Notes: generated from the sequence alone by a model not told the origin. 63,979 nucleotides of DNA, filler included, from a bacterium (GCA_037439705.1; 8 parts of 8 records of this genome joined end to end with filler, not necessarily neighbours in it), one strand, 5' to 3'. Positions 8,077 to 56,260 are shown, counted from the first letter of the whole stretch. Program-made: numbers and translations.

Positions 8077-8176
8077 NNNNNNNNNNNNNNNNNNNNNNNN
8101 NNNNNNNNNNNNNNNNNNNNTTAATTAATTAANNNNNNNNNNNNNNNNNNNNNNNNNNNNNNNNNNNNNNNNNNNN
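8077..8176. other. Artificial contig linker
   Basis: N44-TTAATTAATTAA-N44, with stops in all six frames. Confidence 0.99.
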
Positions 8177-14357: not shown

Positions 14358-16127
14358 ATGAAGAAAAAAGTTTTTTTGCTTTTTCTTCTGGTTGGATGTG
14401 CTACAGAACCAATAGATGTAAAAATAAAAGAAAAAATGTCATCAGCGGAGTCTGCACTGAAAAATGCTGACTATAATATGGCAAGGCTTTACTATGAAGA
14501 AGTGCTCAAACTTGATAAGAACTACTCTCCTGCTAAATTCGGTTTGATAATTTCAGACACATTTGCAAAAATTTCGGAGATTCAGGAATCCCTTGACCTT
14601 ATATCTTCCATCCTTTCCCTTCTCGGCGGTCAGCAAACTCAAGGAGGAATATCATCACTTATAAGGAACTTCCTTGAAAATGCCCTCATTTCAACCTTAA
14701 GAAACCACCTTGATTGCACGGATGGAATATGCTTTGATGAAATTGAAAAGGATTCGTCTTTTGAGTTTTCAGTTGAATCTTTGCCCTTAAAATTGTCTTT
14801 TGGCGGGGTTCCCGTGGTTGACCTTGATTTCGGAGGAAGGTTCAATATCGGAGAGGTTTATTTTCTTGAAGCCCTTTATTCAGGAGTTGTCGGTTTCTCC
14901 GAGATTTTATATACAATAGACCTGAACATAAACATTTTTGACCTTGCAAGTTTTCTTTTTAACTCCGGAATTCTATCTGTTATGAGCGAGGATCCCTTGA
15001 ATGGATTTCTGAGGCTTCTTGCTTCTGTTCTTAACGCAAATTCCAACTTTCTCGGATACAATGGGATGGAAGGTTATCTTTTATCATCAAGAGAAAGAAT
15101 TATAAATGCCTTTGATAGCGAACTCAATTCAATAAATCACCTTTTGAGCAAGAGTTATGAAGATGATACAATTCTTACAGTACACAAGGATCAACCTGAT
15201 ACGATAATTTTTAGATTCAACAATAAACTTCAGCCTGCTCAAACCCCAAAAAAGTGTGAGGGAGTATCTGCTGGAAGGAATGTGTGCGTTTTGATAAAGA
15301 TATCAAAAGAGCTCTTAGAATCAATAGACCATCTTAAAAAGTCCTTTACCACCCCCGGCGAATACGCAAGTTGGGCTGGTGAGATAGCCCCTATAATTGC
15401 TGTTCTTTTCCAGACCCTTATAGATTCAGGAATACTTCTAAACATTATTGATTATGTTCTTACCTTTGTCCAGATAGGAGAAGAGCAAAGCTCAATTATA
15501 GATACCATAAAAACCTTCCTCACCCCGGGAACAGTATCCTATGAACTCATCTGGGGGGTATTAACTGCAATTATTCCGGATGTAGTTCAGATTTCTCCGG
15601 CAACCCTTTTTGAATCTGCAAAGAACGGAAAGTTTTCAATAAGGGGAATCCTTCCCGTATGGACAAAATATAATATCTCCTATCCCGCGGATGTAACATC
15701 TGCTGATACATTCTGGCTTGAGTGGGAATGCGGGACAAAAACGGTTCCGCCTCAATTTTATCCTGACCTTCCTGATAAAAGCCTGCTTGAGGACCTTGGA
15801 ATAGGGATTCCATTGGTATGTAAAAAGGATGTCCCACTTCATGATTCAAAACATTTTGAAAACAGTTATCCACTTGGAGACAATGTAAATATAAATCCAC
15901 TTTTTCCTGACGGAGTTTCTATAAGTTTACCATATATTTACCTTAAAGACCCGACATTGGGAGGTGCTTTGAAGGTAAACCTTTCAAACCTTTCCGCCCC
16001 TTATAACTCAATAAACTGCGTAGAAACATCGTGGCATGTTCCTCAAAGCAATTGTGAGATAAACGCAATATTTCACGGAATTTTCTCAAGCATAATCTCC
16101 CTTATCAGCGGAGGCATTTCATTTTGA
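14358..16127 (+). CDS. Hypothetical lipoprotein with an N-terminal TPR-like repeat
   Basis: Lipobox LVGC; AESALKNADYNMARLYYEEVLKLDKNYSPAKFGL resembles one TPR; remainder not recognised. Confidence 0.7.
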   Translation: MKKKVFLLFLLVGCATEPIDVKIKEKMSSAESALKNADYNMARLYYEEVLKLDKNYSPAKFGLIISDTFAKISEIQESLDLISSILSLLGGQQTQGGISSLIRNFLENALISTLRNHLDCTDGICFDEIEKDSSFEFSVESLPLKLSFGGVPVVDLDFGGRFNIGEVYFLEALYSGVVGFSEILYTIDLNINIFDLASFLFNSGILSVMSEDPLNGFLRLLASVLNANSNFLGYNGMEGYLLSSRERIINAFDSELNSINHLLSKSYEDDTILTVHKDQPDTIIFRFNNKLQPAQTPKKCEGVSAGRNVCVLIKISKELLESIDHLKKSFTTPGEYASWAGEIAPIIAVLFQTLIDSGILLNIIDYVLTFVQIGEEQSSIIDTIKTFLTPGTVSYELIWGVLTAIIPDVVQISPATLFESAKNGKFSIRGILPVWTKYNISYPADVTSADTFWLEWECGTKTVPPQFYPDLPDKSLLEDLGIGIPLVCKKDVPLHDSKHFENSYPLGDNVNINPLFPDGVSISLPYIYLKDPTLGGALKVNLSNLSAPYNSINCVETSWHVPQSNCEINAIFHGIFSSIISLISGGISF

Positions 16128-16213: not shown

Positions 16214-16313
16214 NNNNNNNNNNNNNNNNNNNNNNNNNNNNNNNNNNNNNNNNNNNNTTAATTAATTAANNNNNNNNNNNNNNNNNNNNNNNNNNNNNNN
16301 NNNNNNNNNNNNN
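16214..16313. other. Artificial contig linker
   Basis: N-TTAATTAATTAA-N, 100 nt. Confidence 0.99.
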
Positions 16314-24348: not shown

Positions 24349-24448
24349 NNNNNNNNNNNNNNNNNNNNNNNNNNNNNNNNNNNNNNNNNNNNTTAATTAA
24401 TTAANNNNNNNNNNNNNNNNNNNNNNNNNNNNNNNNNNNNNNNNNNNN
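24349..24448. other. Artificial contig linker
   Basis: N-TTAATTAATTAA-N, 100 nt. Confidence 0.99.
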
Positions 24449-24755
24449 TTCTTTTCAAAAAGGGCATATCAAAGGGGAACAATATATATTTTTCACAGGA
24501 ATAGGTTTTTATTCCAGAAACTAAACCCGCAAGAGGTCCTCTATCTTCAAGCACATCAGGGACAGCCTTAACATCAAACCCTTCTACTCTTATATCAGCT
24601 CTTCCAGCAAGTATTACCTCATCACACACAGAGGAAAGCTCGCCAAGGAGAACGAGGAGAATTTTTTTTCCGTTAAGTATAATATCAAGCTTACTTCTGC
24701 CAAACCTCCTTCCTTTGCCTCCTACAAGTAATATCCCGCATATTTCATTACTCAC
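24449..24755 (-). CDS. mobA: Molybdenum cofactor guanylyltransferase (3' truncated)
   Basis: GILLVGGKGRRFG..K, GPLAGL, FDMPFL. Confidence 0.85.
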
Positions 24756-26140
24756 AGATCATATACCTCCTTATCTTCTTTTATCAGGGATATTCCGTAT
24801 TTCTTTGCCTTCTTCCAGAAAGTTTTTCGTGATATACCGAGCATTCGTGAAGCATCTGTCACCTTTTTTCCTGCTCTTATATAGGCGTTCCAGACGGTTT
24901 TTCTCTCGCATTCTTCCACTATCTCCTTTAAGGACTTTCCTTTCCGTGAACTTTCAGAAGTGTGGGGTATGAAGTTTTTATTTCTGAGGTAAGATGGCAG
25001 GCTTTCAATTCCTATTCTGTTTTTTCCAAATGCCATTATGTGTTCAACGATGTTTTTTAGTTCCCGAACATTTCCTGGGAAGTTATGTTCTGTAAGGATG
25101 TCCATTACCACCGGGTCAATTTCAGGAAAATCCCGCCCCAATTCAATGCACTTTTCTTTTATGAAATGGCTTAGAAGAAATGGTATATCATCCTTTCGTT
25201 CTCTTAGAGGAGGAATCTCTATGTGGATTACATTTATTCTATAAAACAGGTCTTTTCGGAAGAGTCCTTTACTTACCATGGATTCAAGGTCTCTGTTGGT
25301 TGCACATATAAGTCTGAAGTCCACTTTCCTTTTGGTAGTTCCTCCAAGTGGTTCCACCATTTTTTCCTCCAGCACCCTGAGAAGCTTTGCCTGAGAGAAG
25401 AGGGGAAGGTCTCCTATTTCATCAAGAAAAAGGGTTCCGCCGTTTGCAAGTTCAATTTTACCTTTTTTGTTGCATACAGCCCCTGTAAATGCTCCTTTTA
25501 CATATCCGAACAACTCGCTTTCAATGAGATTTTCAGGAACTGCTCCGCAGTTTACAGCAACGAAATCCCATTTATATATGGTGTTTGTGCGGTGAATTAC
25601 TTTTGCCACCAGTTCTTTGCCTGTTCCTGTTTCTCCTGTTATAAGCACACTCGCTGGAGAATCCCTCAAAGATTCTATGGTTTCTACTACCTTTCTTATT
25701 CTTCTGGAAATTCCTATTATTCCGTAATAATTGTGCGCTTCAGTGTCCATTTTTACCTCTTTAAGCATTCTCTCAAGGGAAAGGTGATCAAGGGCTCTTT
25801 TCGCAATAATTTTCAGTTCTTCCACATCAAAGGGCTTTGTAAGATAGTGATATGCTCCTGCTTTGAGCATATTCACCGCGTTTTCTACACTTCCGTATGC
25901 AGTGATTATAATAACCTTTGTTGAGGGGTCTTTATTGATTATTTCCTTAAAAATTTCTTCTCCTGAAAGATGAGGAAGTTTGAGGTCAAGGAGTATAAGG
26001 TCAAACTGTTCTTCCTCAATGAGAGAACGTGCTTTCAAACCATCCTCTGCACTGTAAACCGTGAACCCCTCCTCTTCAAAAGCGGTTGTCATTGCGAGAA
26101 GCATGGACTTTTCATCATCTGCTATCAGAATTTTTTTCAT
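24752..26140 (-). CDS. Sigma-54-dependent response regulator (NtrC family; AioR/ArxR-like role)
   Basis: Receiver domain (ADDE, LLDL), [21 protein letters not shown]-terminal Fis HTH. Confidence 0.93.
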
Positions 26141-26142
26141 TT

Positions 26143-27615
26143 TTATTCCTCCTTAACTGGGAGCAGGATTTTCACTGTGGTGCCAACATTCTCAATGCTC
26201 TCTACATATAGCTCTCCCCCGTGTTTTTCAATTATCCTCAGGCTCAAAGGCAATCCCAGTCCTGTCCCCATACCTGCTGGTTTTGTGGTGAAGAAGGGGT
26301 CAAATATGCGATGTTTTATTGTGGCTGGAATGCCGTCTCCGTTATCTGTTATTGTTATATGAACCATCCCGTTATTGAGGGTTCCTTCTATGATAATTTT
26401 TCCGTCTGGTTTATCTTTTATCGCATATAGAGCGTTCAACAAGATGTTCATTATAACTTCCTGGAGTTGCTCTTTATTTCCATATACAATACCTCCTGAT
26501 GGAGGTAAATGGTCTACAAAATGTAACAGGGTTTCAGAAGTGGTTGAAGGTATGAGTAAAAGAGAGTTCTTGATTAAATCTCTTATGTTAATATTCTCTA
26601 TAAGCCCATCATCCTCCTTTCTTGTGTAATCAAGAAGGCGTCTTACAATATTTTGAACTCTGTCTAAGGATTCAAAAATTACCCTGAAATACTCTTCCCT
26701 TTTCTCTTCTGGCAGTTCCTTGGTTTTAAGTATTTTTAATAAGTTGTATATTCCGCTTAAAGGATTGTTAAGTTCGTGTGCAAGTCCAGCGGAAAGTGTT
26801 CCAATGGCAGTAAACTTTTCAGTTTGAAGGAGTTTTTCAAATGTCTTTTCAAGTTCTGCTTTTGACTTTTCAAGATTTTCTACCATTCTGTTGAAGTTTG
26901 TTCCAAGGGTTTCAAGTTCGTCGCCTGTATTTATGTTAATTCTTTGTGAGAAATCTCCTATACCAACTAAGTTTGTTGCTGAAACGATTTCATTTATTGG
27001 TTTTGTTATTTTTGATGAGAGATAGGTGGATATCCCTATTGCTATAATAAAAAGAAAGAGGGTGATTGCTGAGAATATGTAGTTGATTTGATTTATTACA
27101 CTTTTTATATAATCCGTGGAAAAGCCCATATGAAGTTCTGCTTCATTGTTTAGTGGGAGCGCTGTCTTTATGTGGTAAATTTTCTTTTTATCTGCTTTGA
27201 AGGAGATGTAGTTCATTCCTTCGTATGTTTTCCAGCGAATGTTTCCATCGCTGAGTTTGAGCAGGTCAATGGGAAATCCCTTTATAAATGTGTGCGACAG
27301 AATTTTGTTTCTGTCCTTCAACAAGTAGATGTACAGGATATCTGGATCGGAACTCTTTGTTTCTTTTAATATATGTGAAATGGTGGATGTGTTTTCAGTG
27401 AGCATCGGGTTGGTTATTGAGGATGAGATGTGTTTCATAATTCCAGAAAAGCGAGCCAAAAATTCAGTTTCCAGTTCCTTTACCATTATTGTGTGCACAT
27501 AGAGGTATTCGGTAAGGCGCATCAGGAGAACTACTCCCGCGGTGATGCCAATTATTTTCCACCTGAGCGGGACACGAGTTATCTGAAGTTTTTTAAACAT
27601 TCTTTTCACTTTCAA
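26143..27615 (-). CDS. Sensor histidine kinase (two TM helices, periplasmic domain, HAMP)
   Basis: AHELNNPL H-box, NILLNA, DNGDGI, FDPFFTTK, GTGLGL. Confidence 0.93.
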   Translation of the reverse strand: MKVKRMFKKLQITRVPLRWKIIGITAGVVLLMRLTEYLYVHTIMVKELETEFLARFSGIMKHISSSITNPMLTENTSTISHILKETKSSDPDILYIYLLKDRNKILSHTFIKGFPIDLLKLSDGNIRWKTYEGMNYISFKADKKKIYHIKTALPLNNEAELHMGFSTDYIKSVINQINYIFSAITLFLFIIAIGISTYLSSKITKPINEIVSATNLVGIGDFSQRININTGDELETLGTNFNRMVENLEKSKAELEKTFEKLLQTEKFTAIGTLSAGLAHELNNPLSGIYNLLKILKTKELPEEKREEYFRVIFESLDRVQNIVRRLLDYTRKEDDGLIENINIRDLIKNSLLLIPSTTSETLLHFVDHLPPSGGIVYGNKEQLQEVIMNILLNALYAIKDKPDGKIIIEGTLNNGMVHITITDNGDGIPATIKHRIFDPFFTTKPAGMGTGLGLPLSLRIIEKHGGELYVESIENVGTTVKILLPVKEE

Positions 27616-28517
27616 AATCCTCTTTCACTCACGAATTTAAAAATTTCCTCGGAATTTTTGTAAGAGAGCATTGAGGGAGGTTCAAATCTGTCAAAGTGCA
27701 GCTTTTCAAGAATTTTTGCTCCTTCTTTATCGGTGTGCATATTAATAAGGATTTCCCTTACCTTTTGATAGAGCGGTTTTTTATACCCTGCTTTCATTAC
27801 AACCGGAGGGATACCGAAAGGAGGTGATTCTTCAATAATTCTTACCCCTTTCACAATCTCAGGGTGGTCCTTTATGTAATATTTGAAAATTATATTATCC
27901 ACACCAGCGGCATCAACAATTCCCTGAGCAACCATCTCAATTGATGAGTCGTGGGAGCCTGAAAATATGGTTTTTGTAAAAAACATTTCCGGGAGATAGC
28001 CTGATTTAAGAACACGATAAATGGGGTAGATTTTTCCTGTAAGCGATAAAGAATCTACAAACGCAAAACTTTTTCCCTTCAGATCTTCAAATGAATTTAT
28101 ATTAGAATCTCTTCTGACAATTATTAAAGAATTATATGTTTTTTTTCCATCAACTACGGGAACTGCAAGGATTCTTACAGGAATTTCATTTTTGAGTTTG
28201 ATGTATGCTCCTGTGCATATAAAGGCAATATCCACTCCTCCAAGTTTTATGAGGTCATTCATCTGAGAGTAAGTGGAGCGCTGAATCATGGAGGCTGGCA
28301 TATTCAGCTTTCTGCCTATGTACTCTATTAGTTCAGCGTAGTAGTAGATATTCTGTGAGGGGGTAAGCATAGTTGCTATTCCGAACCTAAAGTCTTTTTC
28401 ATTCCCTTCTTCTGGGTTGAGTATGACTTTCTTTTCAAGATCCACCTCTAAGGGGGTGTCATTCATTTTACATCCTGAGAAGAGCAAAAGAAATATCACA
28501 GGGAAAACTATCTTCAT
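27612..28517 (-). CDS. PhnD-fold oxyanion-binding lipoprotein (AioX/ArxX-like sensor partner)
   Basis: Lipobox FSGC, QRSTY, AFICTGAY, FAFVDSLSLTG, SHDSSI; coupled to a kinase with no ABC permease/ATPase in the operon. Confidence 0.85.
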   Translation of the reverse strand: MKIVFPVIFLLLFSGCKMNDTPLEVDLEKKVILNPEEGNEKDFRFGIATMLTPSQNIYYYAELIEYIGRKLNMPASMIQRSTYSQMNDLIKLGGVDIAFICTGAYIKLKNEIPVRILAVPVVDGKKTYNSLIIVRRDSNINSFEDLKGKSFAFVDSLSLTGKIYPIYRVLKSGYLPEMFFTKTIFSGSHDSSIEMVAQGIVDAAGVDNIIFKYYIKDHPEIVKGVRIIEESPPFGIPPVVMKAGYKKPLYQKVREILINMHTDKEGAKILEKLHFDRFEPPSMLSYKNSEEIFKFVSERGF

Positions 28518-28527
28518 TTTGATATAA

Positions 28528-28556
28528 AGTCTATTTCAACAATAAAATAATGTCAA
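28528..28556 (-). promoter_or_regulatory. Sigma-70 promoter for the binding protein-kinase-regulator-mobA operon
   Basis: TTGACA-N17-TAGACT; predicted start only a few nt before ATG 28517, no SD. Confidence 0.6.
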
Positions 28557-28558
28557 TT

Positions 28559-28597
28559 TGTTTCCAAAAAGCAACGCTATGTTCCCGATAAGAAACA
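28559..28597. promoter_or_regulatory. Tandem enhancer (UAS)-like palindromes
   Basis: TGTTTCCAAAAAGCAACG and TGTTCCCGATAAGAAACA, 21 bp apart centre to centre. Confidence 0.55.
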
Positions 28598-28625
28598 TTT
28601 GTTTAACTTTTTTAAATAATTTTTC

Positions 28626-28640
28626 TGGCACGAATTTTTA
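28626..28640 (+). promoter_or_regulatory. Sigma-54 promoter candidate (perfect -24, atypical -12)
   Basis: TGGCACG-AATT-TTTA versus consensus TGGCACG-N4-TTGC; adjacent to a sigma-54 activator gene. Confidence 0.55.
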
Positions 28641-28675
28641 AACTCTCGTATTGAGAGAATGATTAAGGAGGTGAT

Positions 28676-31327
28676 GTGATGAAGAAGGTAACGAGGCGTG
28701 ATTTCTTAAAACTCGCTGGGGTTCTTGCTTCTGCTTCAGTTATAAATGTAGACCTTTTTGCGGAAGCATTTAGAAAAGAGAAAAACGCTCTTGAAACATC
28801 GGTAGAGTATTTCAAATCCACCTGTAAGATGTGTGTAAACTTCTGTGGAATAAATGTTAAAACAGAAAACGGTGTGCTCCGTGCAATCTATCCTGATGAA
28901 GCGAGAAGGGATTATTACAACATTGGAAACTGTCCAAAGGGAATTTCCGGGATATGGAATACCTACAATCCATACAGGGTGAAAGTGCCTTTGAAAAGAA
29001 GAAATCCTAATAAGGGTATAAATGAAGACCCTCAGTGGGAGGAGATTTCCTGGGAGGAAGCGCTCAAAGAGGTTGCGGGGAGAATTGCCCAAATCAAAAG
29101 TGATGACCCAAGAAAGATAATATGGTATCACGGGCACGGTAAGTATCTCCTACATGATGGGTGGATGAAGGCGTTCGCAAGTGCAATAGGAACCCCAAAT
29201 GTGGTTCACAGAACAACAGTATGTGAGGGTGCAAAACATGTTGCTGACGAAATCACATGGGGATATCACGAGTTCCTTCCTGACCTTGAATACACGAACT
29301 ACCTCAAAAATATGGGAGGGAATTACGCCGAGGCAGATCAGTGGGCGAGATGGCTTGACCACGCAACACTTGATGCAAAGGAGAGGGGTATGAAACTCGT
29401 TGTGGTAGAGCCGAGATTGAGCAACATCGGGGCAAAGGCAGATGAGTGGGTCCCAATTCGCCCTGGAAAGGATGTTCTATTTCTTCTTGCAATGGCAAGG
29501 GTTCTCATTGACGAAGGATACATAGATAAAAATTTTCTCATCACATACACAAACGCACCTTATCTTATAAAAGGGGATGGAACTTTAGCAAAAGATAACA
29601 GTGGAAATCCTCTTGTCTGGGACATAGATATCAATGGACCGGTTCCTTACGACAATGCGACGAATATAGCCCTTGAAGGTTCCTTCAACGATACTGTTTA
29701 CGCTAACGGTGAAGTAAAAACTGCTTTTCAGGTATTCAAGGATTATCTAACAACCGAGAACATATCTCCGGAGGCTGTTGCTGAAGAGTGCGGGCTTTCA
29801 GCTGAACAGATAAGAAGAATTGCCATTGAGTTTGGGCAGTCTGCGAGCATAGGTTCAACAATAAACCTTGATGGAAAGACTCTAAGGTATCGCCCAGTTG
29901 CCATTTACACATTCAGAGGTCTTGTTGCTAAAGAATACGGCACTCAAACTTGGCGCGCAGGGCTTATAGTTATGATGCTCGTTGGAGCACTTGATGCGGT
30001 TGGTGGAGTTCTCCTTCATGAACCAGGAAAAAGTTCTGAATATATGAACCCTTCTTCCTGTGAGTATCCTCCTTCAAGAATTGACTTAAAGAAAAGCGCA
30101 TTCTTCCCACATGCCACCCACGATGTTGCACAGCAGGCACTCTTCACAGTTCCAGAACCCTCAAAATATGGCATTAATTATACGCCTGAGATGCAGATAT
30201 TTTTTGCAACCAATAGACCATTCTCAACCTCAAAAGCAGAGCTTCAACTTGAAGGCTTGAAGAATACATACAATGTCGCCATTGAAATATCAATGAGTGA
30301 GACCGCATGGTTTGCGGACATAGTTCTTCCAGATAAGACATACCTTGAAGCATACGGATATTACGGAGGAAGGTGGGTTCCACACGCAAGACACCACACG
30401 CTTCACTATCCGATAGTGAATACATACAACATTCCTTACCAGAACATTGAGATTTTGGTTGAACTTGCGAAAAGAGCAGGTTTTCTTACAGGTTCAGGCG
30501 GATTCCTTGATAAGATAAACGCTGAGTATAAATTTAGCAATCCTAATCTGGACATAAATAAAACCGATTACACCGCGGAGCAACTTATGGATGTCCTATG
30601 GAGGAACAAGACAGGACAGTCTATTGATGAAGGGAAGAAGAAGGGATTTGGTGGAGAGAAGTTTGTTACAGTAGACGAGCGTTATCTTAAGGGAGTTGAG
30701 GCCAAGTTTAAAGGCGCAGGCAAAGCGAAAATACACTTCTATTGTGATGAACTTGTTGGGACGAAGAATGTCCTTCTTACGAAGTTGAATAATGTCAAAG
30801 AGGTTTTCAAGGAGTGGTATGAAGTTACTGATGGGGAACTTAACTCACTCATTGAAACAAAGCTTTCACCCCTGCCAAGAAAGGACCACGCATATCCTGT
30901 TTCTTACAGGAAATCTACCAATTATCCTTATTACTTGATCACATTCAAAAGAATGTATAGAAATCAGAGCGGATACTGCAACATAAATCCAGTTCTAAAT
31001 CAGGTCGCTCACGATGCGGATACAAATCATATCTGGATAAATCCTGAAACAGCAAATGCTCTGAGTATAAAAGACGGCGATGCGGTGATAATTGAATCAA
31101 GGGTTGGAGAGCTTGAAGGAATAGCAAAGCTTACAGAAGGCATAAGACCTGACACGGTTGCTGTATCATACCACTATGGACAGTGGAGCGGAGGATATCC
31201 TGACTGGGCAAAGAAAGGAACATGGATAAATAAAATTTTGGAATACCATCCTGACATGCTTTCAGGGATGAACAGCTTTAACGATACAAAGGTGATTATA
31301 AGAAAGAAACAAGGAGGTGAAGAATGA
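28676..31327 (+). CDS. Tat-exported Mo/W-bis-MGD oxidoreductase catalytic subunit (ArrA/ArxA/PadB/AnrA-related)
   Basis: TRRDFLK Tat signal; CKMCVNFC...CPKG FS0; PLKRRNPNKG..EDPQWEEISW; probable Mo ligand in HRTTVCEG; ADIVLPD..YLE; WINPETA C-terminal domain. Confidence 0.92.
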   Translation: MMKKVTRRDFLKLAGVLASASVINVDLFAEAFRKEKNALETSVEYFKSTCKMCVNFCGINVKTENGVLRAIYPDEARRDYYNIGNCPKGISGIWNTYNPYRVKVPLKRRNPNKGINEDPQWEEISWEEALKEVAGRIAQIKSDDPRKIIWYHGHGKYLLHDGWMKAFASAIGTPNVVHRTTVCEGAKHVADEITWGYHEFLPDLEYTNYLKNMGGNYAEADQWARWLDHATLDAKERGMKLVVVEPRLSNIGAKADEWVPIRPGKDVLFLLAMARVLIDEGYIDKNFLITYTNAPYLIKGDGTLAKDNSGNPLVWDIDINGPVPYDNATNIALEGSFNDTVYANGEVKTAFQVFKDYLTTENISPEAVAEECGLSAEQIRRIAIEFGQSASIGSTINLDGKTLRYRPVAIYTFRGLVAKEYGTQTWRAGLIVMMLVGALDAVGGVLLHEPGKSSEYMNPSSCEYPPSRIDLKKSAFFPHATHDVAQQALFTVPEPSKYGINYTPEMQIFFATNRPFSTSKAELQLEGLKNTYNVAIEISMSETAWFADIVLPDKTYLEAYGYYGGRWVPHARHHTLHYPIVNTYNIPYQNIEILVELAKRAGFLTGSGGFLDKINAEYKFSNPNLDINKTDYTAEQLMDVLWRNKTGQSIDEGKKKGFGGEKFVTVDERYLKGVEAKFKGAGKAKIHFYCDELVGTKNVLLTKLNNVKEVFKEWYEVTDGELNSLIETKLSPLPRKDHAYPVSYRKSTNYPYYLITFKRMYRNQSGYCNINPVLNQVAHDADTNHIWINPETANALSIKDGDAVIIESRVGELEGIAKLTEGIRPDTVAVSYHYGQWSGGYPDWAKKGTWINKILEYHPDMLSGMNSFNDTKVIIRKKQGGEE

Positions 31328-32004
31328 GACTTGGCAGATTTATTGATACTGAAAGATGCATAGGATGCAGGGCATGTGTTGCTGCCTGTATGAACGAGAA
31401 TTTCTACATTCCGGGTAATCCGTGGATTTTCGTCATTGAGGAAGAGATTGGAAAATTTCCCTATGTGAAAAGGAGATTTGTGCCAATGAACTGTATGCAC
31501 TGCGATGAGCCAGCCTGTAAGAAGGCGTGCGATTATGTAGGGGCGTTCGCTATATCAAAAAATGAGCAGGGCGTTGTTATCATTGATTATGAGAAATGCA
31601 TGGGGTGCAGGTATTGTGTTACCTCTTGTCCTTACGGAGTTCTTCAGTATATTGAAGAATTAAATACACTTTTCTCCGAGAAAACTCCTTACGATGAGAT
31701 ACCCTATGAAAACAGACATCCCGTCCACAGGAAGAAAATAAATACTGTGGAGAAGTGCACATTCTGCTGGCACAGAATAGAAAAAGCTGTTAAGGATGGA
31801 AAGACAAGCGAGATTGGAGTGAATCCTGAATACACACCTGCCTGCGACATTGTATGCCCTGTCGGTGCGAGGGTATTTGGTGACCTTGATGACCCTAATA
31901 GCGAGGTCTCTAAGAGAATATTAAGTAAGTCAGCGAAGCGTATAAAGAAACATTTCGGGACAAAGCCAAAGATTTACTACACAATTGTTGAAGGAGGTGA
32001 GTGA
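31324..32004 (+). CDS. 4x[4Fe-4S] electron-transfer subunit (DmsB/NrfC/ArrB family)
   Basis: CIGCRAC..AC, CMHC.EPAC..AC, CMGCRYC..SCP, KCTFC..PAC..VCP. Confidence 0.95.
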   Translation: MRLGRFIDTERCIGCRACVAACMNENFYIPGNPWIFVIEEEIGKFPYVKRRFVPMNCMHCDEPACKKACDYVGAFAISKNEQGVVIIDYEKCMGCRYCVTSCPYGVLQYIEELNTLFSEKTPYDEIPYENRHPVHRKKINTVEKCTFCWHRIEKAVKDGKTSEIGVNPEYTPACDIVCPVGARVFGDLDDPNSEVSKRILSKSAKRIKKHFGTKPKIYYTIVEGGE

Positions 32005-32309
32005 TGAAAAAACTAACAGGTATAATTATTTCATCCGTATTATTCATCTTTGCAGGATGCGGTAAGGAGAAAAAAATTTACTCCATTGAAACCTATCATA
32101 AAATTCATGTAGAGAAGCTCAATATTGAGTGCGGAACCTGTCATGCAAGTGAAAAGTATGCAAGCGGAGAATATTACCTTAACAAATACGAAATAGAAAA
32201 TGATGTTGCTCTTAAAAAAATTCCAGGGGTCATTGACAAAAACGCATGCATAGGTTGCCATAGAGGCGGTAGCATTGGCCCCGAATTTTATGGAAAGGTT
32301 TGGGAGTGA
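32001..32309 (+). CDS. Small diheme c-type cytochrome lipoprotein
   Basis: Lipobox FAGC; HKIH; CGTCH and CIGCH. Confidence 0.88.
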   Translation: MMKKLTGIIISSVLFIFAGCGKEKKIYSIETYHKIHVEKLNIECGTCHASEKYASGEYYLNKYEIENDVALKKIPGVIDKNACIGCHRGGSIGPEFYGKVWE

Positions 32310-32476
32310 ATTCCCTTCTTCATCAAAAGTTAGCAGAGGAGAGAAGCAAGATATACTGGTTTCTCGCTGATTTCTACAACATAAAGCCGGATTATGAGTT
32401 TCTCAATGAATTGAAATCCTCTCTTAATAATGTGAAAGGTATAGAAGACTTTGAAGAGCTCTATAAATTAAAACTC
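32306..32476 (+). CDS. TorD/DmsD-family chaperone (3' truncated)
   Basis: ERSKIYWFLADFYNIKPDYEFL matches the TorD N-terminal pattern; position in the Mo-enzyme operon. Confidence 0.7.
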
Positions 32477-32576
32477 NNNNNNNNNNNNNNNNNNNNNNNN
32501 NNNNNNNNNNNNNNNNNNNNTTAATTAATTAANNNNNNNNNNNNNNNNNNNNNNNNNNNNNNNNNNNNNNNNNNNN
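32477..32576. other. Artificial contig linker
   Basis: N-TTAATTAATTAA-N, 100 nt. Confidence 0.99.
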
Positions 32577-40395: not shown

Positions 40396-40495
40396 NNNNN
40401 NNNNNNNNNNNNNNNNNNNNNNNNNNNNNNNNNNNNNNNTTAATTAATTAANNNNNNNNNNNNNNNNNNNNNNNNNNNNNNNNNNNNNNNNNNNN
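40396..40495. other. Artificial contig linker
   Basis: N-TTAATTAATTAA-N, 100 nt. Confidence 0.99.
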
Positions 40496-48292: not shown

Positions 48293-48392
48293 NNNNNNNN
48301 NNNNNNNNNNNNNNNNNNNNNNNNNNNNNNNNNNNNTTAATTAATTAANNNNNNNNNNNNNNNNNNNNNNNNNNNNNNNNNNNNNNNNNNNN
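48293..48392. other. Artificial contig linker
   Basis: N-TTAATTAATTAA-N, 100 nt. Confidence 0.99.
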
Positions 48393-56160: not shown

Positions 56161-56260
56161 NNNNNNNNNNNNNNNNNNNNNNNNNNNNNNNNNNNNNNNN
56201 NNNNTTAATTAATTAANNNNNNNNNNNNNNNNNNNNNNNNNNNNNNNNNNNNNNNNNNNN
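56161..56260. other. Artificial contig linker
   Basis: N-TTAATTAATTAA-N, 100 nt. Confidence 0.99.

Follow-up and report, generated by a model that had tools for sequence, protein, structure and literature searches.

Which compound is sensed, and then oxidized or reduced, by a molybdoenzyme system whose genes stand back to back with those of an AioX/ArrX-type sensor is the question raised by the locus at 24449-32476 of the window, by which we mean the whole stretch of 63,979 nucleotides, filler included, that was analyzed from a bacterial genome (GCA_037439705.1). The window consists of eight contigs of ~8 kb each, artificially joined via seven N44-TTAATTAATTAA-N44 spacers, and 24449-32476 is one entire contig of 8,028 bp (Table 1). 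Its minus strand encodes X (a predicted oxyanion-binding lipoprotein), S (a sensor kinase), R (a sigma-54-dependent response regulator), and the start of MobA; divergent from these, the plus strand encodes A (the catalytic subunit), B (an iron-sulfur subunit), C (a diheme cytochrome c), and the start of D (a TorD-like chaperone). mobA and the TorD-like gene are cut short because the contig ends fall inside both. The same arrangement, a binding lipoprotein-kinase-sigma-54 activator-mobA operon divergent from a Mo subunit, an FeS subunit, a diheme lipoprotein, and TorD, had been described in an earlier note as a candidate oxyanion respiration system, and Pfam and NCBIfam profiles together with sequence motifs confirmed its genes. 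We find that the locus is not a one-off but belongs to a family that is very large, widespread, and, it seems, unstudied. Judged from its sequence, the enzyme is neither Arr nor Phs and, by motif and gene order, it is not Arx; an oxyanion of arsenic or antimony is its most likely substrate, an assignment that we put slightly below an even chance.

A protein search with A returned 960 clusters at an E value of <= 0.001 among 8000 candidates scored, and 280 of 285 pattern matches in contigs from one genome per species were confirmed as relatives; the locus counts given below rest on 80 loci kept from these 280. Identity to A is 63-71% in hydrothermal metagenome-assembled genomes (MAGs) and ~50% in many Gamma- and Betaproteobacteria. 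Among the carriers are Aquificaceae, Thermodesulfovibrionales, Thermodesulfobacteria, Thiobacillus, Sulfuritalea, Accumulibacter, Azospirillum, Rhodoplanes, Photobacterium, Hahella, and Scalindua, as well as MAGs labeled Thermoproteota, Hydrothermarchaeota, and Archaeoglobi, and many of them are sulfur oxidizers or hydrothermal organisms. No family member was found by tblastn in a plasmid collection, where the top match had 27.9% identity. Members currently go by the names "PhsA," "PadB," or the generic "molybdopterin oxidoreductase," several are called "phenylacetyl-CoA:acceptor oxidoreductase" by JGI, and the ESM Atlas holds generic automatic names only, such as "putative thiosulfate reductase PhsA" for A.

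The gene order A-B-diheme c-TorD is conserved. By tblastn, A is present in 80/80 loci, B directly after A in 78/80, the diheme cytochrome in 60/80, X nearby in 30/80, and a sigma-54 regulator (>150 bits) in 23/80, while clustering of open reading frames (ORFs) placed a TorD-like gene in 61/80. In archaeal-labeled loci and in Rhodoplanes, OmpR-type regulators replace the sigma-54 regulator. Further genes accompany some loci only: NapC/NirT directly upstream of A (5/80), cytochrome-b561 fusion proteins (8/80), a NapF-like cytoplasmic polyferredoxin after D (20/80), FmdE (8/80), MoeA (4/80), and an OprP-like porin directly upstream of A (4/80, at a borderline Pfam score of 20.6 bits against a cut-off of 20.9). 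The polyferredoxin, of 522 amino acids (aa), was considered as a NapH-like quinol dehydrogenase and rejected; since it has no convincing transmembrane segments and weak NapH/NapF-type similarity, a role as a maturation ferredoxin in the cytoplasm is more likely. None of the gene clusters shared by four or more of the 80 loci is an NrfD-type anchor. The 8,028-bp contig itself encodes no quinone-linked subunit, and the description of the module as "self-contained" is therefore not demonstrated.

The closest relatives of this operon, with its bacterial-type lipoprotein and Tat (twin-arginine translocation) features, come from MAGs labeled Ferroglobus (L002), Archaeoglobaceae (L004), and Geoglobus (L006). 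Their contigs are short (5-10 kb), and the isoleucyl-tRNA synthetases (IleRS) of L002 and L004 are only 40% identical to that of the window; these archaeal-labeled carriers may reflect either mis-binning or interdomain transfer.

The catalytic subunit carries the Tat motif RRDFLK and a cluster motif of the form CX2CX3C...C, and its FS0 cysteines (C49, C52, C56, and C85) are invariant columns in the family. Three further motifs are HGHGKY (151-156), HRTTVCEGAKH (177-187), and TWGYH (193-197), the second of which holds C182, the probable Mo ligand, which aligns with C193 of ArrA. A combines a probable Cys Mo ligand with the FS0 [4Fe-4S] motif, both of which are features of ArrA. None of the NCBIfam curated cut-offs is reached by A: the top curated profile is that of PhsA rather than ArrA (NF012032; 257.4 bits versus a cut-off of 694), the ArrA profile (NF041714) gives 182.9 bits in two stretches versus 1600, and TtrA gives 57 bits versus 1750. 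The nearest solved chain by phmmer is ArrA of Shewanella ANA-3 (5.6e-44), with PsrA next (2.6e-33), and an AlphaFold model of A with a predicted local distance difference test score (pLDDT) of 79.8 likewise has ArrA (6cz7_A) as its top Foldseek match (4.1e-45; template modeling scores of 0.70/0.76; 21% identity).

The residues around the active site set the family apart. In the parts of the literature cited here (PMC6549141 section 18; PMC13685797), ArrA is characterized by the motif (R/K)GRY at ANA-3 positions 163-166 and ArxA by XGRGWG. HGHG of A aligns at the RGRY site of ArrA, and neither RGRY nor XGRGWG is present. The family-wide forms of the three motifs are (H/Q)HGHGKY, HRTT(V/T)CE(A/G)A(K/R)H, and TWG(Y/G)H, and HGHGKY is found in 18 of the 20 family proteins aligned, the remaining two having HAHGKY and WGHGKY. 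In ANA-3 numbering, the family has His in place of R163, His in place of R165, Gly in place of Y166, Arg in place of H189, and His in place of K198, while C193 is retained and Y210, the tyrosine of WGY, mostly so. The resulting pocket of A is rich in His, Lys, and Arg. That the catalytic motif and the electron transfer partner differ from those of Arr and Arx, as had been claimed beforehand, is thus borne out by HGHGKY and by a diheme c-type cytochrome in place of an NrfD anchor.

The phylogenetic position of A was assessed in two quick IQ-TREE runs with 52 and 54 rows (LG+G4), with branch support from the Shimodaira-Hasegawa-like approximate likelihood ratio test (SH-aLRT). Besides the 20 family rows, the trees held 12 full-length ArrA references, which came from 401 sampled genomes of a single phylum and score 1016-1334 bits against the ArrA model (12/12 with RGRY and SHSx(I/L)CAE), Psr/Phs-like paralogues from three genomes, and DmsA and NapA of E. 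coli. The family rows are monophyletic (SH-aLRT, 100; stem length, 0.79), and the ArrA rows form a separate clade (SH-aLRT, 100) in which the family is not nested; for ArrA, the question of whether A would fall within a characterized clade is thereby answered in the negative. Instead, the family is joined (SH-aLRT, 100) by L089 and L090, two proteins of Sulfuritalea that lack a Tat signal. L090 lies ~7 kb from padI on the same contig and strand (842 bits versus a curated cut-off of 700) and is therefore probably PadB, which fits the JGI label, an identity taken from gene context only. Because both proteins are long branches, the grouping may be an artifact. The expectation of an Arr/Pad-related Mo enzyme is in keeping with these results, with ArrA as the nearest solved structure and PadB-like proteins as the tree neighbors.

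Several candidates for comparison were discarded. Three Desulfobacterota proteins with intermediate matches to the ArrA model (L121-L123), tried as stand-ins for Anr, turned out to be one ordinary ArrA that has XSR genes and shares 89% identity with a reference ArrA, and members of other Psr/Ttr-like groups. A Soe-like candidate in Thioalkalivibrio is Tat-less and cytoplasmic (PMC6620896), and another candidate was set aside as NapA-like with a Rieske subunit. A search of the open literature found no description of the clade, which could sit in supplements (Ospino tables, Wells trees); Wells et al. 2023 mention unnamed novel branches. AnrA or SbrA may belong in the clade; the gene order reported for Anr, anrXSRBAD, differs from the A-B-C-D order of the family.

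The sensor protein resembles known arsenic sensors. Compared with solved structures, X matches ArrX best (6x6b; 177 bits, 4.8e-51), followed by AioX (6esk; 111 bits, 4.4e-31), PtxB structures (80 bits, 2e-21), and PhnD (48 bits). It passes TIGR01098, the model of the phosphate/phosphite/phosphonate solute-binding protein (SBP) subfamily, at 138 bits versus a cut-off of 112, and stays under the cut-off of TIGR04553, a putative selenate-binding model, at 1e-18. As described in the portion of PMC5908839 that concerns the ligand site, the AioX pocket is formed by Tyr88, Cys106, Tyr131, Ser161, Ser163, His192, and Asp210, of which Cys106 bonds arsenite and is without a counterpart in PhnD. The corresponding positions of X are Y83, C101, Y128, S158, T160, H189, and D207, the sole change being Ser to Thr at T160, and the AioX-type pocket including its Cys is retained in 20 of 21 X proteins that adjoin family A genes. 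By these comparisons X belongs to the AioX/ArrX sensing-SBP subfamily, with ArrX nearest, and the AioX-like sensor named in the earlier note stands.

Control by sigma-54 is suggested by both the regulator and the promoter. R combines a receiver domain, an AAA+ domain with the GAFTGA loop, and a Fis-type helix-turn-helix (HTH) domain, its stop overlaps the mobA start by 4 nt, and S has its sensor region at the N terminus, before HAMP. The earlier note had read -24 and enhancer-like elements into the space between the two operons. The first of these holds, as a perfect TGGCAC box lies ahead of A, followed by a poor -12 element (8/10 matches overall to TGGCAC-N5-TTGC). The second is not substantiated: the 158-bp intergenic region has no convincing inverted repeat upstream of the promoter, only the direct repeat of ATTTGTTT and AT-rich palindromes, and sigma-70-like matches in the region are not commoner than in shuffled sequence. 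When the window itself is set aside, A is preceded by a sigma-54 box (at least 8/10) in 13 of the 18 loci that have an X or R cluster and in 3 of the 42 that do not. Boxes of at least 9/10 occur in 6/61 loci versus 0.4 in shuffles. As the boxes track the X/R clusters, the logic leading from XSR through sigma-54 to ABCD would be a property of the family, one that the window fits with a weak -12 element.

The partner subunits point to a soluble enzyme with its own cytochrome. B has no signal peptide and probably hitchhikes with A via the Tat system; its top NCBIfam match is ArrB, at 151 bits versus a cut-off of 450. C contains CGTCH and CIGCH, a lipobox (FAGC), and two further conserved His in RxHxxH, and since two CxxCH motifs are present in 37/39 C proteins and RxHxxH is shared as well, this fits bis-His ligation. 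No detectable similarity connects C with E. coli NapB (E = 0.08), and no relative of C was found among solved chains. The 59-aa fragment of D matches no Pfam family. In 13/80 related loci, however, the gene that follows C begins with a sequence 41-54% identical to this fragment, and a full-length relative (L017:3977-4681) matches PF02613 at 1.6e-29. A complex prediction for B with C lends weak support to their interaction, with an ipSAE score of 0.52 versus 0.28 for the best of three controls; the mark for this score is reached by 58/80 solved complexes and 2/110 mismatches, and a score of 0.60 or less is seen in only 7 of those 80. Agreement between the runs is 54% of contacts or more, and the partner pLDDT is at least 55.

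The family thus resembles several known systems without matching any of them. Like ArrAB of Shewanella sp. ANA-3 (PDB 6CZ7), it has a Tat-exported subunit with molybdenum bis(pyranopterin guanine dinucleotide) (Mo-bisPGD) and a Cys ligand together with a four-cluster FeS subunit; ArrA is nearest to A among solved structures by both sequence and fold, ArrB is the top profile for B, and ArrX of the Chrysiogenes arsenatis ArrXSR system is the top solved relative of X. A TorD-type chaperone is shared with Arr, and so is, in some loci, a NapC/NirT gene, the family that includes CymA, which supplies electrons to Arr in Shewanella. Unlike Arr, the family falls far short of the ArrA model (183 bits versus 1600), has HGHGKY rather than RGRY, is changed at the positions of ArrA residues 189 and 198, forms a clade apart from 12 motif-true ArrA proteins, and adds a conserved diheme cytochrome c. 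With ArxB2ABCD and ArxXSR, as these are laid out in the cited part of PMC6549141, it shares a divergent XSR set with a sigma-54 regulator and a TorD-like D gene, and with ArxA the Gly at the position of ArrA Tyr166 (xGxG pattern). It lacks XGRGWG and is set apart from Arx by motif and gene order, and neither an NrfD-like ArxC nor ArxB2 is seen, be it on the contig, which ends inside D, or in the clusters shared by at least 4/80 loci.

Resemblances to Nap and Anr are of a similar kind. Along with NapAB(C/GH), the family has a soluble, Tat-exported Mo enzyme, a small diheme cytochrome c, and, in part of the loci, a NapC/NirT quinol dehydrogenase or the NapF-like polyferredoxin; unlike Nap, it has a separate FeS subunit B and a C protein that is not NapB-like, and A lies far from NapA in the tree. 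An antimonate reductase, AnrXSRBAD, is reportedly encoded by Geobacter sp. SVR and Desulfuribacillus stibiiarsenatis (Kambara et al. 2024; Abin & Hollibaugh 2019). Anr is likewise reported to join an XSR sensor to a DMSO (dimethyl sulfoxide)-reductase-family AB enzyme, a D chaperone, and linked metalloid efflux genes, but its B reportedly precedes A and it is not known to have a cytochrome gene, whereas in the family A precedes B in 78/80 loci and a diheme cytochrome c follows.

The neighborhood of the family speaks for arsenic as well. Within 8 kb of A, acr3 occurs in 10/80 loci and arsC in 5/80 (together 11/80), and when 40 genomes were searched whole, 8 of 32 acr3 copies were within 8 kb of A versus 0.2 expected (Poisson p = 5e-11). 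Both ACR3 (447 bits) and ArsC (174 bits) reach their curated cut-offs, and ArsR-type regulators and an ArsP-like permease stand beside two hydrothermal loci. We also count in favor of arsenic or antimony the position of ArrA as the solved enzyme nearest to A and the second XSR-controlled molybdoenzyme next to the family locus in Accumulibacter, described below. Our results lead us to propose that the locus encodes an XSR- and sigma-54-controlled periplasmic oxidoreductase for an As/Sb-type oxyanion, a proposal that is our leading one and that nonetheless falls a little short of an even chance of being right. Several observations weigh against it. No ars gene lies within 8 kb in 69/80 loci, the residues of ArrA that are exchanged in the family are those that bind arsenate, and the top curated profile of A is PhsA, not ArrA. 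The nearest sampled relatives in the tree are PadB-like and would act on organic substrates, and the -12 element of the window promoter is poor. Finally, according to Badilla et al. (PMC5908839), the choice of ligand is not set by the pocket residues alone.

As to direction, we consider it slightly more likely that arsenate or antimonate is reduced than that arsenite is oxidized. On the reductase side are the closeness of X to ArrX, the c3/c7-like bis-His features of C, and the NapC/NirT or b561 partners and OprP-like porin of some loci; on the oxidase side are the ArxA-like Gly at position 166 and the prevalence of the family in sulfur-oxidizing denitrifiers. The ubiquinone pool of sulfur oxidizers and denitrifiers would suit oxidation or a higher-potential acceptor, which is a further point against the proposal. 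According to a 2026 Methanoperedenaceae paper, Arr and Arx are both bidirectional in vitro.

Alternatively, the enzyme could reduce or oxidize a compound of sulfur or selenium in the periplasm (thiosulfate, polysulfide, tetrathionate, selenite, or selenate), with XSR tuned to that anion. This is in our view unlikely, although it would account for several of the findings. These are the rank of PhsA among the curated profiles and in the Atlas name, the many carriers that oxidize sulfur or live in hydrothermal settings, a rhodanese-like gene that adjoins one locus (L021), the match of X to the putative selenate-binding model below its cut-off, and the known use of a PhnD-like sensing domain by TtrS (NF040750 match). 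The PhsA cut-off, however, is missed widely, and the NrfD-type neighbor expected of PhsA or PsrA is not found in the clusters of at least 4/80 loci. Moreover, X keeps the Cys-containing pocket of AioX, and the genes enriched in the neighborhood are acr3 and arsC, not sulfur genes.

We consider it improbable that the family hydroxylates or dehydrogenates an organic, non-oxyanion substrate in the periplasm, as its PadB-like relatives might lead one to suppose. The PadB-like proteins are the nearest sampled tree group and share a GHG core at the motif position, and JGI gives the name of the PadBCD enzyme to several members of the family; the proximity of L090 to padI adds to this resemblance. Unlike the family, however, the sampled PadB-like proteins have no Tat signal and are ~100 aa shorter, and coenzyme A esters are cytoplasmic, whereas the family has a predicted periplasmic location, a periplasmic cytochrome c partner, and sensors from an oxyanion-binding subfamily. 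Neither pad genes nor other genes of aromatic catabolism are among the conserved neighbors of family loci (in Sulfuritalea, padI adjoins L090 and not the family locus), and the tree grouping itself, with its long branches, is possibly an artifact. A phosphorus oxyanion enzyme, such as a periplasmic phosphite oxidoreductase reflecting the PhnD/PtxB family of X, is very improbable, because the passing score on TIGR01098, the match to PtxB structures, and the borderline OprP-like porins are outweighed by the far better matches of X to ArrX and AioX, by a pocket Cys that is typical of the arsenic-sensing subfamily and that PhnD was seen above to lack, and by the lack of ptx, htx, and phn genes among the conserved neighbors. 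Nor is any Mo-bisPGD enzyme known to act on phosphite.

If the family does act on an oxyanion of arsenic or antimony, its mechanism may be pictured by analogy with AioXSR and ArrXSR. X would bind its ligand in the periplasm and signal to the kinase S, S would phosphorylate the sigma-54 activator R, and R would activate transcription of the divergent operon at its TGGCAC-type promoter. A, holding Mo-bisPGD with a Cys ligand, would be exported by the Tat system and carry B along, and electrons would pass between B and C, a lipoprotein-tethered cytochrome c with two hemes of the bis-His type, while D and MobA would serve cofactor insertion. We further speculate, more tentatively, that the clade could be another major lineage of bioenergetic As (or Sb) oxidoreductases beside Aio and Arr/Arx, with a soluble AB enzyme, its own diheme c, and an AioX-type sensor, spread over both Bacteria and Archaea in habitats as different as hydrothermal vents and groundwater, and at present invisible to arrA/arxA/aioA surveys; this is possible rather than probable.

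Table 1. Features of the contig at 24449-32476 and spacers of the window, numbered from the first letter of the window
Feature	Position	Strand	Remarks
mobA, molybdenum cofactor guanylyltransferase	24449..24755	-	N-terminal 102 aa; PF12804 9.5e-19, NF001457 6.4e-15
R, sigma-54-dependent response regulator	24752..26140	-	PF00072 1.5e-29; PF00158 7e-69; HTH_8/HTH_50
S, membrane sensor histidine kinase	26143..27615	-	HAMP PF00672, HisKA PF00512, HATPase PF02518
X, AioX/ArrX-type oxyanion-binding periplasmic lipoprotein (predicted)	27612..28517	-	PF12974 4e-58; lipobox LFSGC
Intergenic region, 158 bp	28518..28675		between X and A starts
8-nt direct repeat ATTTGTTT, two copies	28556 and 28597		41 nt spacing
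-24 box TGGCAC	28626-28631		perfect; ~45 nt ahead of A start
-12 element	28637-28640		weak, TTTA instead of TTGC
Shine-Dalgarno AGGAGG	28666-28671		upstream of A
A, Tat-exported (predicted) Mo/W-bisPGD catalytic subunit	28676..31327	+	883 aa; PF00384, PF01568, PF04879
B, four-cluster [4Fe-4S] electron transfer subunit	31324..32004	+	226 aa; Fer4_11, Fer4_7; 16 invariant Cys
C, small diheme c-type cytochrome lipoprotein	32001..32309	+	102 aa; Cytochrome_C7 7.7e-5, below cut-off
D, start of TorD/NarJ-type chaperone gene	32300..32476	+	59 aa; contig ends inside
Spacers N44-TTAATTAATTAA-N44	8077-8176, 16214-16313, 24349-24448, 32477-32576, 40396-40495, 48293-48392, 56161-56260

Because adjacency across the spacers is artificial, the contigs with IleRS and LspA and with PKD-type lipoproteins are not true neighbors of the locus. 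The IleRS of the neighboring contig (21054-23792) is 49-53% identical to the IleRS of the genomes that carry L001, L003, and L005, whose A subunits are 65-70% identical to that of the window; that IleRS is less alike than A points either to horizontal movement of the oxidoreductase locus or to its being conserved far more strongly than housekeeping genes. On the next contig (32677-37297, minus strand), PKD/Ig-like domains recur in two large lipoprotein-like proteins of 609 and 546 aa, which flank a 385-aa ORF and are unrelated to the oxidoreductase locus, and at 14358-16127 (plus strand) there is a 589-aa ORF without a Pfam match at 1e-5.

Some family loci have further genes of interest beside them. 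In the hydrothermal MAG of L006, a 79-aa AbrB-like protein (L006:1688-1927, minus strand) is encoded between acr3 and the family A gene and, at 97.8 bits versus a cut-off of 70, passes the model named "HgcAB-associated protein HgcC." Second XSR-linked molybdoenzyme loci were seen at L125 (G005:C6:46000-64000) and L124 (G003:C1:5000-24500). In Accumulibacter, within ~10 kb of the family locus, a second X-S-R set is divergent from genes in the order of Ttr, B'-C'(NrfD-like)-A'-D', of which B' and C' are TtrB- and TtrC-like and A' has the motif YGRNR(S/T)G. Sulfuritalea has the same A', D', and X-S-R layout beside its family locus, where B' was not called, and a 61% identical copy of A' occurs in a Desulfobacterota genome (L121). 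Two sensor-controlled modules of the DMSO reductase family side by side look like a metalloid or oxyanion island.

The genes counted when arsenic and antimony cycling is surveyed are arrA, arxA, and aioA, and such surveys would miss or mislabel a separate, widespread XSR-controlled enzyme. The family has cultured carriers, among them Sulfuricystis multivorans, Photobacterium proteolyticum 13-12, Rhodoplanes elegans DSM 11907, and Hahella sp. SMD15-11, so its function is directly testable. Assignment of a substrate would add a node to the DMSO reductase (MopB) superfamily and might explain metalloid respiration in organisms without known genes for it. If our proposal is true, the family may be a further route for the microbial respiration or oxidation of arsenic-type oxyanions.

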